Shown in pieces: positions 4,239 to 8,425 of a stretch of DNA of 8,425 nt. Position 1 is the stretch's first letter, and each line of letters begins with the position of its first letter. The notes beneath the pieces were generated by a model. That model searched no databases. It had not been told where the DNA came from and was given only the letters and a program-made list of their open reading frames with translations. The stretch is from a virus (Duplodnaviria > Heunggongvirae > Uroviricota > Caudoviricetes). Location of the stretch: positions 1-8,425 of IMG/VR virus record IMGVR_UViG_2737471839_000001; one strand, 5' to 3'. The position numbers and the translations under genes are program-made.

Positions 4239-5391
4239 CGATGTTGACCTGGGGTATGCGTACACCCTGAAACCGGAAGAAGCGATTAAATATTTCGAAA
4301 GCAAGGGATACGTTATCGGCTTCCGCTGGCACGATGTGAAGGACATCGCACACGCCCGGGCGTTCACGGTGGCGGGCGTGCTGAAACTGGATGTGCTGAA
4401 GGATATCCGTGATGGCCTGACGGCGGCAATAGCTGACGGCGGGACGTTCCGGGAGTTTGCTGCACAACTGGAGCCACTGCTGGAATCAAAAGGCTGGCTG
4501 GGTAAACGGCTGATTGTGGACGAGGACACCGGCGAACTGCACGGCAGACAGCTGACGCCGCGCCGGTTGCGCACGATATTTGATACCAACATTCAGTCGT
4601 CATATAACGCCGGACGTTATCAGCAGCAGATGGCGAACGTGGCTGACCGGCCTTATTTTGAGCGCGTGGCAGTAATGGATCTTCACACCCGCCCGAAACA
4701 CGCCGCCCTGAACGGTTTTACCGCCCGGGCGGATGACCCGGTCTGGGAGTATTTCTACGCGCCTGACGGGTACGGATGCCGCTGCCGTATCCGGGCGCGT
4801 TCGGTGTCTGATGTGGAGAAATATGGCCTGACGGTGCAGAGCAGCGAGGGGCGACTGGTTGAGGTTGAACAGGAATATGGCCAGCCGGGCCAGACCATCA
4901 GAACAATGGGGCTGAAGATGCCGGACGGTTCCGTGTATACCACCGACCCGGGCTTCGGATTTAATCCCGGTCGGGTGGCATGGCAGCCGGAACTGGAAAA
5001 ATACAATTACCACAGCGCCCGCCAGTATGTCACCGGCACCCTGACCGGGCCGGATTTTGCCCGGGGACTGGCAAACGTCAGCGAACTGGATGCGCGCCAG
5101 CGATATCCGCTGGCCATCCGTTCACCGGAACAGGTCGCCGCCACGGGCGCTGCACGGCAGACGGTAAACCTTACGGCTGACGTTATGAAGCGCCTCAGTG
5201 CAGCAGACACGCCCCCGACCGCCGCCGACTATGTGCTGATGCAGCAGACCATCGAACGGGCGGAGCATGTCACGCAGGACGGTAACGCGTGGCGGTATGC
5301 GTTACAGTCAGGCGACCGCTGGTCAGTGGCAACGGTGGAGGATGACGTGCTGACAGACTGGGTTATGCAGGACACACCAGAGGCATCATGA
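4225..5391 (+). CDS. MuF-like minor head / head morphogenesis protein (Mu gp30/F-like)
   Basis: 388 aa; ATG 4225 overlaps the portal 3' end by 14 nt, with a GGGGG run 7-12 nt upstream. Contains the characteristic MuF core DLHTRPKHAALNGF…DDPVW…PDGYGCRCRIRA (about 4680-4800). No extra C-terminal domain beyond the normal MuF-length tail. Confidence 0.8.
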   Translation: MPTADDVDLGYAYTLKPEEAIKYFESKGYVIGFRWHDVKDIAHARAFTVAGVLKLDVLKDIRDGLTAAIADGGTFREFAAQLEPLLESKGWLGKRLIVDEDTGELHGRQLTPRRLRTIFDTNIQSSYNAGRYQQQMANVADRPYFERVAVMDLHTRPKHAALNGFTARADDPVWEYFYAPDGYGCRCRIRARSVSDVEKYGLTVQSSEGRLVEVEQEYGQPGQTIRTMGLKMPDGSVYTTDPGFGFNPGRVAWQPELEKYNYHSARQYVTGTLTGPDFARGLANVSELDARQRYPLAIRSPEQVAATGAARQTVNLTADVMKRLSAADTPPTAADYVLMQQTIERAEHVTQDGNAWRYALQSGDRWSVATVEDDVLTDWVMQDTPEAS

Positions 5392-5939
5392 GCAGCGGTA
5401 AACTGGATATTAAGATTGATTTAAGCGCGTATAACACCACGCTGGGTAAACTGATTCGTTCCGTGAAGGACCGGCGCGACCTGATGACGGCACTTGCAGG
5501 CTCCATGCTGGATGCGGTGGAAACCAACTTTGAACAACAGGGTCGCCCGAAATGGATGGGCTGGAGTCCGGCCTATGCGAAGCGACGCGGCCCCGGGCAA
5601 ATCCTTCAGAAGTCCGGGCGACTGGCTGCCAGTATCCGCTCTGCGGTTAACAATAACGAGGCCACGGTCGGGACAAACGTCCGTTATGCCCGTATCCACA
5701 ACGAAGGCGGCGAAATCCGCCATCAGGCACGGACGCAGAACCTGTATTTTAAACAGTACAAAAACGGCAGCGTCAGCAGCCGCTTTGTGAAAAAGCGCAA
5801 CAGTAATTTTGTGCAGAGCGCAACGGTCGGAGCGTATACGGTCAACATGCCCGCGCGTCCCTTCCTTCAGCTTGTGCAGGACGACATCGACGAGCTGGAG
5901 AACACCGCAAACCGCTATTTTGCGCGTGTGATTGACTGA
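5388..5939 (+). CDS. Virion morphogenesis protein (Mu G-like)
   Basis: 183 aa; ATG 5388 overlaps the F stop (ATGA). Sequence shape (…GRPKWMGWSPAYAKRRGPGQILQKSGRLAASI…RYARIHNEGGEI…PARPFLQL…) fits the phage virion-morphogenesis (Mu gpG) family, and the position after the MuF gene matches Mu. Confidence 0.7.
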   Translation: MSSGKLDIKIDLSAYNTTLGKLIRSVKDRRDLMTALAGSMLDAVETNFEQQGRPKWMGWSPAYAKRRGPGQILQKSGRLAASIRSAVNNNEATVGTNVRYARIHNEGGEIRHQARTQNLYFKQYKNGSVSSRFVKKRNSNFVQSATVGAYTVNMPARPFLQLVQDDIDELENTANRYFARVID

Positions 5940-5954
5940 ATAACCACAAACGCG

Positions 5955-6003
5955 CTGTAATCGTCTGTGACAACATAAACGCCTCACGGATGAGGCATTA
6001 CAG
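5955..6003 (+). terminator. Nested inverted repeat downstream of G; possible terminator or RNA processing structure
   Basis: Outer repeat CTGTAAT (5955-5961) pairs with ATTACAG (5997-6003). Inner perfect hairpin GCCTCA (5981-5986), loop CGGA, TGAGGC (5991-5996). A 19-nt bulge sits on the 5' arm. No U-tract follows immediately, so it is not a canonical intrinsic terminator. Confidence 0.3.
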
Positions 6004-6031
6004 CACCGCACCCCGTAAATGCCGTCAGAAT

Positions 6032-6094
6032 CGTTTTTAAAAGGGTTTTAAAAACGGTTTTATTTCCCCTTTTATCCTTTCCCGTTATGGCAGG
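6032..6094 (+). promoter_or_regulatory. Candidate late promoter / activator-binding region upstream of the I-like gene
   Basis: 25-nt AT-rich palindrome CGTTTTTAAAA-GGG-TTTTAAAAACG (6032-6056) followed by a pyrimidine-rich stretch with -10-like hexamers (TATTTC 6061-6066, TTATCC 6072-6077, GTTATG 6084-6089). It is the only long intergenic gap in the operon and lies where Mu carries its C-dependent P_I late promoter. No -35/-10 pair with canonical spacing identified. Confidence 0.3.
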
Positions 6095-6139
6095 GTGCTG
6101 AACACCCTCCACAGTACCCCGTGTTCCCCTTCCGTCATC

Positions 6140-7264
6140 ATGTCGCGTATGAAGATGAACATTGCGGCGTTAAGCCTCGAAATTACTAAAGCAACCCACA
6201 GCGAAATCCAGCTGTTTCCGGCGGGCGAGTTCAGCGCGGTGGATGGACGCCCACATACCGATGAAGTCGAAAGCGGTAAATGGGTGCTGACCGCTGAACT
6301 GGCCGCGCAGCTTGTCGCACAGGTGGCAGCCCGTACCACGCCTTTTGTCATTGATTACGAACATCAGACGCTGCGCGCCGTAAACAACGGCAAGCCCGCC
6401 CCGGCGGCGGGCTGGTTCAGCCAGGTGGAATGGCGTGAAGGCGCGGGCCTGTATGCCACCGGTGTGGAGTGGACGGAGAACGCGGCGGCCATGATTGCCG
6501 CCGGTGAGTACAAGTTTATTTCCCCTGTTTTTGCCTACAACAAGCGCGGCGAAGTGCTGGAGCTGTTACATGCTGCGCTGACCAATACCCCTGCGCTCGA
6601 CGGTATGGACGCGGTCATGCTGGCTGCGGCCAGCCGTCTGGCGAGTCTGTCAACTGAAACGGAGACCACAACGGTGGATGAAGAACTGTTAAACGATTTG
6701 CTGTCCAGTCTGCGCTGGATGCTTAACCTCCCGGTTACCTCAACGGCGGAAGATATTAAAAGCGAGCTGCAAAAGGTCGTTGACATGATTTCGAACGGTC
6801 AGGGAACGGCGGCGGCATCCGTCAGCCTGCTGACCCTGCTGAATCAGAAAGACGAGCAAATCGCCAGTCTGTCAGCAAATGCCTATGACCCGACGAAGCA
6901 TATCCCTCTGACGGCATATGAAGAACTTCAGGGGCGTTATGCCGCACTGGCGCAACAGTCCGGTGAGGCCGAAGCCGGGGCACTGATTCAGGCGGCGCTG
7001 TCTGACGGGCGACTGCTTCCGGCGCAGGAAGACTGGGCGAAAGATTACGCCGGTCGCGATATCAACGGCTTTAAGTCCTGGCTGGAGAACGCACCAAAAC
7101 TTGTTGCGCTCAGTCAGACACAGACCGGCGGCAAAGCCCCCAAAACGCCGTCGCCTGCCCCGGCGCAGATTAAAACCGGCGATGACGTTGATGTCGATAT
7201 CGCCATTTGTTCAATGATGGGCGTTGATCCAGAGGATGTCGCCCGTTACGCAGGAGACAAATAA
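6140..7264 (+). CDS. Head protease / scaffolding protein (Mu I-like; C-terminal part may also be made as a separate Z-like scaffold)
   Basis: Open frame 6095 (GTG) to TAA 7262-7264. The first ATG is at 6140, with further in-frame ATGs at 6149 and 6155; none has a strong Shine-Dalgarno sequence, so the start is uncertain within 6095-6155. N-terminal half (…FPAGEF…DGR…FVIDYEHQT…) resembles the Mu I protease domain. C-terminal half is Ala/Leu/Glu/Gln-rich and probably helical, as in scaffolding proteins. Confidence 0.7.
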   Translation: MSRMKMNIAALSLEITKATHSEIQLFPAGEFSAVDGRPHTDEVESGKWVLTAELAAQLVAQVAARTTPFVIDYEHQTLRAVNNGKPAPAAGWFSQVEWREGAGLYATGVEWTENAAAMIAAGEYKFISPVFAYNKRGEVLELLHAALTNTPALDGMDAVMLAAASRLASLSTETETTTVDEELLNDLLSSLRWMLNLPVTSTAEDIKSELQKVVDMISNGQGTAAASVSLLTLLNQKDEQIASLSANAYDPTKHIPLTAYEELQGRYAALAQQSGEAEAGALIQAALSDGRLLPAQEDWAKDYAGRDINGFKSWLENAPKLVALSQTQTGGKAPKTPSPAPAQIKTGDDVDVDIAICSMMGVDPEDVARYAGDK

Positions 7265-7670: not shown

Positions 7671-8425
7671 GTGTTAGTCAACGTTAAAAACGTCAAACAG
7701 ATTTTTATCAATCTGAAGGCCACCTTCCAGAAAGCCTTCGACCAGTCGCCAACTGACTGGCAGAAGGTGGCAATGGAAGTGCCATCAAACGGCAAGGAAA
7801 ACGACTACAGCTGGTTAAGTCGTTTCCCGAAAATGCGCGAGTGGATTGGTGACAAGGTCGTCAAATCACTGGCGGCATTTAACTACACCATCCGTAACAA
7901 GGACTGGGAAGCCACGGTTGAAGTCGATCGTAACGACATCGAGGACGACCAGATTATGGGCTATGCCCTTCAGGCAAAAGGCGCCGGACAGTCGGCGGCA
8001 GAACTCCCGGCAGATATTGTGGCGTCCCTTATCAGTAACGGTTTTACCAATCCCTGTTACGACGGTCAGATGTTCTTTGATACCGACCACCTGGTCGCCG
8101 GTAAATCGGTGTCCAACAAAGGTACCAAAAAACTCAAAGTTGGCTCGCTTGCCGAGGCGAAAGCCTCCTACGGTGCCGCCCGTACGGCCATGCGTAGTCT
8201 GAAAGATGACGAAGGCGCATCCCTCAAAATTCGCCCGAATCTGCTGGTTGTGCCACCGGCGCTGGAGGATGACGCGAACTACCTGATGACCGCCGAGAAG
8301 TTCCCGGACGGTACGCCGAACCCGTACCGCAACACCGCCGACGTGCTGGTGATGCCGGAGCTGGCGTCGGATTCTGCGTGGTTCCTGTTTGACACCACCA
8401 AACCGGTGAAACCGCTGATTTATCA
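7671..8425 (+). CDS. Major capsid (head) protein, Mu T-like; 5' partial, continues beyond the window
   Basis: AAGGAG at 7659-7664 sits 6 nt before GTG 7671. The frame stays open to the window end at 8425 (about 251 aa shown), so it is absent from the ORF track only because it has no stop. N-terminus MLVNVKNVKQIFINLKATFQKAFDQSPTDWQKVAMEVPSNGKENDYSWLSRFPKMREWIGDKVV… resembles Mu-type major head subunits, and the position after protease/scaffold fits. Confidence 0.75.
   Translation, partial: MLVNVKNVKQIFINLKATFQKAFDQSPTDWQKVAMEVPSNGKENDYSWLSRFPKMREWIGDKVVKSLAAFNYTIRNKDWEATVEVDRNDIEDDQIMGYALQAKGAGQSAAELPADIVASLISNGFTNPCYDGQMFFDTDHLVAGKSVSNKGTKKLKVGSLAEAKASYGAARTAMRSLKDDEGASLKIRPNLLVVPPALEDDANYLMTAEKFPDGTPNPYRNTADVLVMPELASDSAWFLFDTTKPVKPLIY

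Follow-up and report, generated by a model that had tools for sequence, protein, structure and literature searches.

The window, by which we mean the whole 8,425-nucleotide stretch of DNA that we analysed, contains a head module with the gene order DUF1804, terL, Mu portal, F, G and Mu-like I protease. G occupies positions 5388–5939, and the gap that follows it measures 200 bp up to the first ATG (6140) and 209 bp up to the ATG at 6149, which is the PGAP start of I in every E. coli relative that we fetched. A sequence-only reading of this DNA had described the G–I gap of about 200 bp as the one break in a module whose other gene junctions overlap or abut; the length is correct, but there is a second gap, of 34 bp, at 951–984, and it carries a GC-rich hairpin. 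The same reading had placed two inverted repeats, one nested and one palindromic, between G and I, and direct reading of the sequence confirmed the positions of both. Related prophages of ~97% identity are present in 55 E. coli genomes, and the lineage, to which TUM1881 also belongs, is found in ~1% of complete E. coli genomes, including that of EPEC E2348/69. One relative, L001, is a complete prophage that is 97% identical to the window and spans about 1780–37065 of a 42-kb locus. Megablast against a phage collection gave no match to the window, and the best match in a distant blastn search, to a Klebsiella phage, had only ~70% identity. The best result of an Rfam search of positions 5800–6300 at permissive E-values was STnc310, whose score of 20 bits (E 0.28) fell well short of the threshold of 40. 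Two small open reading frames on the − strand (5984–6112 and 5842–5976) were rejected as genes because the relative AVS0151 has a 1-nt indel and the stretch is highly variable.

The I-proximal part of the gap contains a 16-bp imperfect dyad, GCTGAACACCCTCCAC (6097–6112, + strand; centre 6104.5), which we propose as the site of a late activator of the Mor/C family. Its 13-bp core, GCTGAACACCCYC, occurs in three mismatch-free copies in L001 (at 13288, 20710 and 32611), all of them intergenic and on the + strand, and these copies precede the lysis operon, I and the gp46 homologue. The box pattern is also found at three sites in Klebsiella phage ST405-OXA48phi1.1 and at two in D3112. Over 33 promoters, 59.8% of cells are complementary across the dyad, compared with 52.9% when shuffled (0 of 500 shuffles) and 23–37% in slid controls, and the half-sites vary by lineage with changes on both halves (CTGAA, TTAAA, CTAAC and CTGAC). 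L001 also contains a Mor-family gene (12491–12958; Pfam Mor, 29.1 bits against a cut-off of 24.9) directly upstream of its lysis-operon promoter, and the encoded protein has in common with Mu C the motif FLGGxxFYIP; this gene lies outside the window and was seen only in L001, the 97%-identical relative.

A σ70 scan of the gap identified no complete −35/−10 promoter. A −10 hexamer without a −35 element, CATCAT, is located at 6136–6141 on the + strand. Each of the three L001 promoters has, at an offset of 39–44 from the start of the box, a hexamer whose second base is A and whose sixth is T. In the 33-promoter alignment every non-coding column varies except those of this A and T, and the only other invariant columns are the TG of the start codon. 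The hexamer begins 31.5 bp from the dyad centre (6104.5 to 6136). C sites in Mu combine a 16-bp imperfect dyad at −43.5 with a −10 hexamer and no −35 element, giving a −43.5 to −12 geometry (PMC2582627); the window has this geometry in its dyad-to-hexamer distance, its own −43.5 being counted from the predicted start. The particular counterpart in Mu is PI, a C-dependent late promoter (Jiang & Howe 2008, PMC2582627), which, as in the window, lies directly upstream of I past the G–I gap and has a −10 without a −35 as well as an imperfect dyad of 16 bp placed 31.5 bp ahead of the hexamer. Moreover, Mu resembles L001 in having the same box at its lysis- and baseplate-operon promoters and a Mor/C-family gene directly upstream of the lysis operon. 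The two systems nevertheless differ in several respects. The box is GCTGAACACCCYC in the window lineage, whereas the four late promoters annotated in Mu have CATAACCCC in common; a single Mor/C gene is present in the complete relative, whereas Mu has two (Mor and C); the third promoter of L001 is situated between the baseplate V and gp46 homologues, whereas that of Mu is inside N; and the mRNA from Mu PI begins with a leader of about 25 nt that includes a Shine-Dalgarno sequence, whereas in the window the predicted transcription start falls at the start codon. Mu PI is also said to have been treated by Margolin et al. in 1989. Taken together, we consider it very likely that the G–I gap holds an activator-dependent promoter, at which a Mor/C-family activator would bind the 16-bp dyad, whose centre lies about 44 bp before the start, and recruit σ70 RNA polymerase to the −10 element CATCAT without a −35 element.

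Hexamer spacing and the PGAP annotation put the predicted transcription start of I at 6147–6149 and its start codon, ATG, at 6149–6151, so that the two together span only 6147–6151. The ATG at 6149 lies 8 nt past the hexamer, and 36 of 47 loci have an in-frame ATG whose A follows the hexamer's final T by 7 or 8 nt. No Shine-Dalgarno sequence is present at any of the three candidate ATGs of I, whereas one is found at the portal gene, at G, at orf7265 and at the next gene downstream. Because the ATG of I follows the hexamer so closely and is not preceded by a Shine-Dalgarno sequence, the mRNA is probably leaderless: transcription would start at or beside the start codon of I and yield a leaderless protease/scaffold mRNA. 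We lean modestly towards a start of the I mRNA that is leaderless or nearly so. Against it, the homologous gp46 start codon of the Klebsiella phage is a GTG; AUG is strongly favoured by E. coli in leaderless translation; and the leader of Mu PI likewise speaks against it. About a third of related promoters have a GC-rich inverted repeat that brackets the −10 and ends at the ATG, and this repeat is absent from the window's own promoter. A search of a collection of papers found no description of leaderless mRNA in Mu-like phages, and RNA-seq of the B3-like phage Fc02 (PMC9936078) was uninformative on late promoters.

At the other end of the gap, directly 3′ of the G stop codon, lies a conserved block, CAAACGCGCTGTAAT (5947–5961, + strand), that is nearly invariant in an alignment of 13 sequences, the exceptions being one substitution in Z1324 and a change of the first base in L004 and L007. 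In relatives this block forms the left arm of a canonical intrinsic terminator, the right arm of which is missing from the window lineage. The terminator in L004 consists of AAACGCGCTG-taattcgct-CAGCGCGTTT followed by TTATCC (−15.1 kcal/mol, z −4.4), and that in L003 of AAACGCGC...GCGCGTTT followed by TATCTT (−13.2 kcal/mol, z −4.0). Rho-independent terminators after G in Intestinirhabdus, Buttiauxella, Trabulsiella and Klebsiella phage ST405-OXA48phi1.1 have the left arm CAAACGCGCTG in common with the window, but in place of the right arm and U tract the window lineage has unrelated, fast-evolving sequence. Indeed, 29% of the columns between 5962 and 6026 are variable and diversity there is 0.105, approximately five times more variable than the flanking coding sequence (0.02–0.036), whereas the diversity of 6027–6148 is as low as that of coding DNA (0.021–0.024). 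The nested inverted repeat (5954–6004, + strand) falls in large part within this variable stretch. Its outer arms of 8 nt match at 100% (GCTGTAAT/ATTACAGC, comprising CTGTAAT at 5955–5961 and ATTACAG at 5997–6003) and enclose the inner hairpin GCCTCA-CGGA-TGAGGC at 5981–5996, with GCCTCA at 5981–5986 and TGAGGC at 5991–5996. As RNA, the inner hairpin folds at −9.3 kcal/mol (z −4.7) and the region 5940–6010 at −20.3 kcal/mol (z −2.85). In most E. coli relatives, however, the arm ATTACAG is replaced by ATAACAG or ATTGCAG, and more distant relatives lack it; the repeat is followed by CACCGCACCCC, such that there is no U tract on the + strand and a terminator scan finds a terminator-like structure on the − strand only. 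A different hairpin, spanning the G stop codon (GCGCGTGTG...CAAACGCGC), was rejected, its fold being equal to that of shuffles (z 0.0). We suggest that positions 5940–6026 constitute a boundary after G in which the 15-nt block would be what is left of an ancestral terminator, and the rapidly evolving sequence after it may fold into the nested hairpin by chance.

Between this boundary and the promoter lies the AT-rich palindrome CGTTTTTAAAA-GGG-TTTTAAAAACG (6032–6056), which has perfect 11-nt arms (11+3+11) and extends to 14-nt arms at 93% (6029–6059). It is exceptional in the window, in which there is one other inverted repeat of at least 10 nt with separate arms within 40 nt (7796–7828). The sequence-only reading had proposed conservation in related prophages as a check on the palindrome, and such conservation is found in part: the palindrome is invariant among the E. 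coli relatives, but wider relatives keep a TTTAA(A) direct repeat instead. In particular, of 47 loci, 14 have as their best repeat upstream of I a direct repeat with 11-bp spacing and 9–10 matches out of 10, and in each case at most 7 of 300 shuffles do as well. Judged by these comparisons, the palindrome is a pair of TTTAAAA boxes 11 bp apart that appears to correspond to the right-arm boxes of the strong gyrase site of Mu. A degenerate first A/T box, CGTAAATGCC (6013–6022; CTTAAATGCC in L001), is positioned 22 bp upstream of the next box, and the spacing box 1–22–box 2–11/12–box 3 is also seen in Mu (17891–17935), Vibrio phage ZX4290 and L012. Boxes upstream of I are kept in Mu-like phages of both gamma- and beta-proteobacteria, among them D3112, Vibrio phage ZX4290, the Klebsiella phage and a Mu-like element inserted in an Stx2c phage. 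The latter has the same boxes as the window in its own G–I gap, and no DNA-level match was found between it and the window lineage (E. coli E2348/69, TUM1881 and others). TTTAA boxes with 11-bp spacing are not confined to the genome centre: they are seen at other places in these genomes, such as the transposase A/B junction in Mu and in L001.

The boxes belong to a series of helically phased A/T tracts (6021–6075; centres near 6017, 6029, 6038, 6050, 6061 and 6072), which we propose as a gyrase-wrapping arm. In a Fourier analysis of A/T content at periods of 10.5–12 bp, no position in the window exceeds 6021–6075 in amplitude (z 4.13). As a control, the same measure ranked the Mu right arm (17907–17961) as the second-best cluster in 36.7 kb, so that the control was passed; in the 42-kb locus of L001 the element ranks sixth among clusters. 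Immediately downstream of the palindrome, a T-/pyrimidine-rich tract, GTTTTATTTCCCCTTTTATCC (6057–6085, + strand), aligns with CCCGTTTTATCTTCC of Mu and could serve with the palindrome as the U tract of a weak terminator. Its Mu counterpart lies within a TransTermHP-predicted terminator (17908–17953), and the U tract is missing from L003, L004 and L007, all of which have a canonical terminator after G. Read as a stem-loop (6029–6066), the palindrome has the U tract GUUUUAUUU, but its stem is almost all A-U, it falls below the scan minimum of three G-C pairs, and the hairpin is not conserved in relatives. That the boxes of this lineage form an AU-rich RNA hairpin at all follows from the self-complementarity of TTTAAA. 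It is conceivable, though we rather doubt it, that these boxes additionally act as a terminator, in which case the AU-rich hairpin and GUUUUAUUU would weakly terminate the upstream late operon.

The G–I gap of Mu itself is annotated with a gyrase cut site (17879/80), a terminator and the late promoter PI. In its remarks on Mu the sequence-only reading had correctly placed PI upstream of I but had overlooked the strong gyrase site in this gap, a site that is reportedly described in work by Pato, Howe & Higgins from 1990 and by Oram et al. from 2006. Close relatives of Mu are at least 98% identical across the gap, and as a result provide no conservation signal there. The best local alignment to the Mu site pairs Mu 17912–17958 with window 6033–6082, and its score is reached by 0 of 500 shuffles. 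Like the Mu strong gyrase site (Sutormin et al. 2019, PMC6379681), the element in the window lies in the G–I gap near the genome centre, has right-arm boxes followed by a GTTTTAT(C/T)T tract in a collinear and significant alignment, and displays extended helically phased (about 10.75 bp) A/T signals on its I-proximal side. The right arm, with its phased bending signals, is the essential part of the Mu site (PMC6379681; PMC13284261). In Mu, L001, the Klebsiella phage, D3112 and the Vibrio phage the element is positioned at 49–54% of genome length (49% in Mu, about 53% in L001). There are also differences: the element of the window is about 60 bp from the G stop codon, compared with 20 bp in Mu; boxes 2 and 3 form a perfect palindrome in the window lineage; and the candidate site of the window has a putative cleavage core that is only weakly similar and is not conserved. 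This candidate core (5989–6011) pairs ATGAGGCATTACAGCA-CCGCAC with ATCAGGCATAAAATCAGCCGCAC of Mu, an alignment that 25 of 1000 shuffles score as well as; the match is collinear with that of the right arm, is weak in the close relative L001, and falls in a stretch that is poorly conserved even among E. coli relatives. By homology to Mu, the cut is predicted to fall near 6000–6008. The boxes further resemble an arm of the published 133-bp gyrase consensus, ...CCTTTAAGGGGGCCTTTTGG. When A/T-versus-G/C templates derived from that consensus, one full-length and one for the right arm, were applied, the full template put the G–I gap first in both the window and L001, but the Mu site itself ranked only 46–299 of 73,000, a failed control on account of which both templates were discarded. 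Central intergenic regions of Mu-like prophages have been proposed as gyrase sites, according to the accounts of that work given in later papers (Oram & Pato 2004, J Bacteriol 186:4575, via PMC3820752 and PMC10052514). On this evidence a gyrase-site role for the boxes is, in our estimation, evenly poised. The phased A/T boxes (6013–6085) would probably wrap gyrase as an arm of the site, and gyrase acting with high processivity at the centre of the genome would help the prophage ends to synapse for replicative transposition. Oram and Pato, in 2004, reportedly tested candidate prophage gyrase sites in Mu.

The sequence-only reading had offered a different account, in which a late activator (or IHF) would bind the palindrome, the pyrimidine tract would supply the −10, and the nested hairpin would act as terminator. 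The palindrome is indeed statistically unusual as well as invariant among E. coli relatives, and Mor/C activators do bind dyad sites. However, the proposed activator box lies instead 40 bp downstream, and the two other late promoters of the prophage lack the palindrome but carry the GCTGAACACCCYC box. What is kept in relatives is the direct repeat and not the palindrome, at a distance from I that ranges from about 112 to 250 bp. The −10-like hexamers noted in the pyrimidine tract are present but are not conserved in relatives, and the −10 element is CATCAT instead. No match to the IHF consensus WATCARNNNNTTR with at most one mismatch was found within 5940–6139, and the nested hairpin makes a poor terminator candidate, given its missing + strand U tract, its lack of conservation and its position within the fastest-evolving stretch of the region. 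We therefore regard this account of the palindrome as improbable; its broader proposal of an operon boundary with a Mu PI-type late promoter directly upstream of I is supported. Alternatively, the palindrome and T tract might do no more than end transcription of the lysis-to-G late operon as a Rho-independent terminator, with no gyrase role and with the boxes of relatives serving the same RNA purpose. The RNA hairpin (−12.3 kcal/mol) is followed by GUUUUAUUU, the homologous stretch of Mu is the TransTermHP-predicted terminator, and the canonical post-G terminator of relatives has been lost in the window lineage, all of which would fit. Even so, we think this unlikely, given that the boxes are present without a comparable hairpin or U tract in L003, L005, L013, L015, L018 and D3112, that L004 combines the palindrome with a canonical terminator, that the stem is almost pure A-U with a modest fold z-score (−2.6; 3 of 200 shuffles are as good), and that conservation tracks the 11-bp direct-repeat register, which is meaningless for an RNA hairpin.

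It might also be that gyrase is not the direct reader of the phased TTTAA boxes, and that they are instead sites for some other DNA-architectural protein, either a host nucleoid protein or one encoded by the phage, that organises the genome centre or the region upstream of the I promoter. Boxes are nearly identical within a phage, more alike than those of different phages are, whereas their flanks differ between phages, which fits a sequence-specific, phage-encoded binder; similar phased boxes are found at the A/B junction and at other intergenic sites in Mu and L001; and in D3112 anti-CRISPR genes have been inserted between G and the boxes, with the consequence that the boxes remained beside the I promoter. 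Moreover, IHF, Fis and HU are also needed by the Mu domain (PMC3820752). Weighing against such a protein are the lack of a candidate and of any match to a known consensus in the gap, the location of the homologous Mu boxes within the experimentally defined right arm of the gyrase site, and the variable distance from boxes to promoter, and we rate it as distinctly unlikely. Finally, intergenic DNA is AT-rich and short two-copy repeats often arise by chance, but that the repeats are functionless features of such a spacer is very improbable: positions 6027–6148 vary as little as coding DNA while the adjacent stretch is 5 times more variable, the boxes recur across distant phages, and no shuffle attained the score of the alignment to Mu. 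Our preferred reading is that the G–I gap is the prophage's version of the central intergenic control region of Mu, in which a post-G boundary, phased A/T boxes and a late promoter stand in a row. We think this reading probable, and what it describes is a new example of a known arrangement.

The same features raise a possibility concerning a large Mu-like clade, which contains this E. coli prophage, Klebsiella phage ST405-OXA48phi1.1, Pseudomonas phage D3112 and many proteobacterial prophages. We suggest, tentatively and with somewhat more doubt than conviction, that Mor/C-type promoters in this clade give rise to a leaderless head protease/scaffold mRNA, and in the myovirus members to a leaderless mRNA for the gp46 baseplate operon too, the predicted +1 coinciding exactly with the start codon. 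The promoter in this clade always lies directly downstream of a phased-box, gyrase-type element, which suggests that late head-gene expression might couple to the local supercoiling set by the central gyrase site.

The candidate late-activator box defined here could be used for predicting late regulons in Mu-like prophages, with lineage specificity that is readable from the dyad, and the predicted leaderless start of the protease/scaffold gene would correct starts that are likely mis-annotated, such as that of D3112 orf33. The G–I gap also supplies a candidate strong gyrase site. If the boxes are gyrase-wrapping arms across the transposable phages of gamma- and beta-proteobacteria, then they would provide natural variants for studying how gyrase chooses its T-segment, and would support the view that a central gyrase site is a general need of replicative transposition in genomes of around 36 kb.

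The window holds genes for DUF1804, terL, the Mu-type portal, F, G (5388–5939) and a Mu-like I protease, and the gap between G and I spans 200 bp to the first ATG and 209 bp to ATG 6149, the I start that PGAP annotates in all relatives fetched. The sequence-only reading had the gene context right. The G–I gap, which it took as the one spacer among abutting or overlapping genes, is not the sole junction with a structured spacer: the genes for DUF1804 (small-terminase-like) and terL are separated by 34 bp (951–984) that contain a GC-rich hairpin, GCGGCCCGG-TTTT-CCGGGCCGT, at 956–977 that is terminator-like by scan. Phage sequence searches found no close phage record for the window. A prophage 90–99% identical to the region was present in 55 of 5,426 complete genomes of E. 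coli, including EPEC E2348/69; the copy in strain TUM1881 (locus L001, 42 kb) is a complete Mu-like prophage of ~35.3 kb inserted at scpC that encodes a repressor, transposase A and B, GemA, one Mor-family gene, lysis genes, the same head module and a Mu-type contractile tail.

Direct reading bore out every sequence feature previously described in the gap. In particular, outer arms CTGTAAT (5955–5961) and ATTACAG (5997–6003), extended to 8 nt by a repeat finder, enclose the inner hairpin GCCTCA-CGGA-TGAGGC (5981–5996), and the palindrome CGTTTTTAAAA-GGG-TTTTAAAAACG (6032–6056) has perfect 11-nt arms (14 nt at 93% by the repeat finder). In the whole window, the palindrome and one other are the only inverted repeats of at least 10 nt with separate arms within 40 nt. 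RNA folding was better than that of shuffled sequence for the inner hairpin (z −4.7), for 5940–6010 (z −2.85) and for the palindrome (z −2.6). The corresponding gap of Mu is 196 bp long, and its record annotates a strong gyrase site cut at 17879/80, a predicted terminator (17908–17953) and the C-dependent late promoter P_I (17977–18043). Because of this annotation we tested two hypotheses for the window gap, a late promoter and a gyrase site; the earlier reading had considered the late promoter alone. The G–I gap is another case of a known arrangement, the central G–I control region of Mu-like transposable phages.

A block conserved among relatives in other enteric genera, GCTGAAC-C-CTC, lies ~50 bp upstream of the I start. 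The 13-mer GCTGAACACCCYC has exactly three zero-mismatch copies in L001, all on the + strand and all intergenic: ahead of the holin/lysis operon, in the G–I gap (window 6097–6109) and between the baseplate V and gp46 homologues, positions that correspond to P_lys, P_I and P_P of Mu. Each of these promoters has, at an offset of 39–44 from the box start, a hexamer whose second base is A and whose sixth is T (TACCCT for lysis, CATCAT for I, CAGACT for gp46). The regulon recurs in Klebsiella phage ST405-OXA48phi1.1 (sites 9270, 18063 and 29750), where the box is lineage-specific, and in Pseudomonas phage D3112, in which one box copy directly follows the annotated late transcriptional activator gene and another lies upstream of I. 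When 33 promoters from distant Mu-like prophages were aligned, no column was invariant apart from the hexamer's A and final T and the start-codon TG; in a sigma-70 −10 element the two defining positions are this A and this T.

The proposed activator box (6097–6112) is an imperfect dyad. Over the box columns of the 33 promoters, 59.8% of cells are complementary versus 52.9% in shuffled sequence (a value at or above that observed in none of 500 shuffles) and 23–37% in slid controls. Half-sites vary by lineage with both sides changing (CTGAA...TTCAG, ATTAAA...TTTAAT, CTAAC...GTTAG, GCTGAC...GTCAGC), a pattern that would be expected of a dimeric activator co-evolving with its site. The Mu C site comprises a 16-bp imperfect dyad at −43.5 and a −10 hexamer, with no −35 (PMC2582627), and the 31.5 bp from the dyad centre (6104.5) to the hexamer start (6136) in the window equals this published geometry. 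The Mor protein of L001 (Pfam Mor, 29.1 bits against a cut-off of 24.9) has the motif FLGGxxFYIP in common with Mu C; a Mor-family gene encoded outside the window thus answers the question, left open by the sequence-only reading, of a Mu-C-type activator. The late promoter proposed in that reading was right in kind, with its parts wrongly assigned: it is the GCTGAACACCCYC box, not the palindrome, that recurs at late-operon starts in L001, and we found no support for the palindrome as an IHF site.

A small hairpin, AGGGTG-CTGAA-CACCCT (6091–6107), overlaps the activator box. The lysis-operon promoter of L001 (13282–13298) has GGGGTG-CTGAA-CACCCC, a two-sided change that keeps the pairing, and the baseplate-promoter copy is without such a hairpin, which could be an extended dyad or chance. 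Separately, 10–11 of 33 related late promoters have a perfect GC-rich inverted repeat of at least 6 bp around the −10 hexamer and ending at the start codon (consensus GCCGCC-gACAnT-GGCGGC-ATG; 0.2 cases in shuffles, none at shifted positions). It occurs in L011, L015, L016, L019, L021–L024, L039, D3112 (L055 808–824) and L001 (32646–32661); the I promoter in the window is without it.

ATG 6149 has its A 8 nt after the final T of the hexamer, and among 47 related loci 36 have an in-frame I ATG 7 or 8 nt after such a hexamer. No Shine-Dalgarno sequence precedes any of the three ATGs at which I could start; such a sequence is present at the portal gene, at G, at orf7265 and at the gene that follows I, presumably the major head gene. 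The gp46 homologue of L001 has the same hexamer-to-start layout with only 53 bp to the previous gene, a spacer that no other sigma-70 geometry fits. Together, the spacing, the missing Shine-Dalgarno sequence and the gp46 layout place the predicted transcription start at 6147–6149, and judging from these features the I mRNA is probably leaderless. As caveats, the transcript from P_I of Mu has a leader of ~25 nt with a ribosome-binding site, and the gp46 homologue of the Klebsiella phage (L057 29800) has GTG rather than ATG where a leaderless start is predicted, which either counts against the model or indicates that this gene is translated in another way. A full-text literature search returned no paper linking 'leaderless' to Mu-like phages. 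In D3112, the protease/scaffold gene orf33 is annotated from 19918, and an in-frame ATG (MKKNRLHVAIAA...) at L055 825 (NC_005178 19794) follows a −10-like hexamer, CACCAT, by 7 nt, with a late-activator box, GTTGAACCCCTTC, at the standard offset; the annotation probably leaves out the first 124 nt of the gene.

The nested hairpin had been put forward as a terminator, which we consider unlikely: on the + strand its U tract is absent, and its outer arm is unconserved even among E. coli copies. Diversity in the nested-hairpin stretch is 0.105 versus 0.02–0.036 in flanking coding sequence; that of 6027–6148 is 0.021–0.024. A canonical terminator directly follows G in Intestinirhabdus, Buttiauxella and Trabulsiella relatives and in the Klebsiella phage, its left arm being a near-invariant block, CAAACGCGCTG. 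The window lineage has kept this block (5947–5961) and lost the right arm and U tract, with the nested hairpin in their place. The palindrome would form an AU-rich hairpin followed by GUUUUAUUU, which aligns with the U tract of the predicted terminator of Mu. Were the upstream late operon to end inside the gap, this hairpin with GUUUUAUUU would be the better terminator candidate than the nested hairpin, a role to which we give rather less than an even chance. Read on the − strand, the inner hairpin (5978–5999), followed by GUUUAUGUUGU, is terminator-like by scan (−11.5 kcal/mol, z −4.4), with no − strand gene or promoter evident nearby.

Alignment with relatives did not show a conserved palindrome; they keep instead TTTAA(A/C) boxes directly repeated at 11-bp spacing. 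What gives the window boxes their palindromic look is only that TTTAAA is its own reverse complement and that the flanks match by chance. Such boxes occur in Photorhabdus and Xenorhabdus (TTTAAACGGGG-TTTAAATGGGG), Natronospirillum (GTTAAACAGG twice), a Burkholderiales genome (TTTAACGGGG/GTTAACGGGG) and D3112 (AACCCCGTTA twice), as well as in the Klebsiella phage, Vibrio phage ZX4290 and a Mu-like element inserted in an Stx2c phage. For 14 of the 47 loci, the top short-range repeat in the region upstream of I was an 11-bp one with 9–10 of 10 matches (reached in at most 7 of 300 shuffles in each case). The gap of the Stx2c-phage element (LC727881; L059 1058–1234) is laid out likewise, with phased boxes TCTAACCTG-TATTTAACGGGC-TTTAAAATC, repeated CTGAAA motifs and then a hexamer (TATGCT) 7 nt before the ATG, without a Shine-Dalgarno sequence. 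In D3112 (L058 18797–19700), G is separated from the phased boxes by AcrF2, an anti-CRISPR gene, and two small ORFs, which marks the gap as a place where accessory genes insert; the boxes have stayed with the I promoter on the I side.

Whether the boxes form a gyrase site is, in our estimate, evenly balanced. The best local alignment between the Mu gyrase-site region and the window gap pairs Mu 17912–17958 with 6033–6082 (0 of 500 shuffles), and Mu TTTTTAAACCGGTATTTAACGG (17913–17935) lies at +33 to +55 from the cut, within the right arm. It is this arm, with its phased bending signals, that is essential in the Mu site and that forms the T segment, and the arms of the Topo-Seq gyrase motif show a periodicity of 10.75 bp (PMC6379681; PMC13284261). 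The window boxes are much like the published consensus arm (...CCTTTAAGGGGGCCTTTTGG; PMC6379681; PMC13284261) in the same orientation. Upstream of and collinear with the right-arm match, Mu ATCAGGCATAAAATCAGCCGCAC aligns with 5989–6011, a weak match (25 of 1000 shuffles as good) that is not kept in L001; the two alignments would place a cut near 6000–6008. By 10.5–12 bp periodicity of A/T content, a measure by which the Mu right arm ranks second in its genome and so passes as a control, 6021–6075 ranks first in the window (z 4.13) and only sixth in L001; substitute gyrase scoring templates failed to recover the Mu site, their positive control. The element sits at 49–54% of genome length in Mu, L001, the Klebsiella phage, D3112 and the Vibrio phage. 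The two boxes of one phage are closely alike, as would also be expected if a sequence-specific protein read them. Runs of TTTAA boxes (three or four, 11 bp apart) are found too at the transposase A/B junction of Mu (L002 3315–3342) and of L001, whose two runs (5200–5227 and 8105–8143) occupy that junction and one early-region intergenic gap; the boxes are thus not unique to the genome centre. Of greater interest as leads are the conserved, probably leaderless arrangement seen at the late promoters and the fact that the adjoining phased boxes are so deeply conserved.
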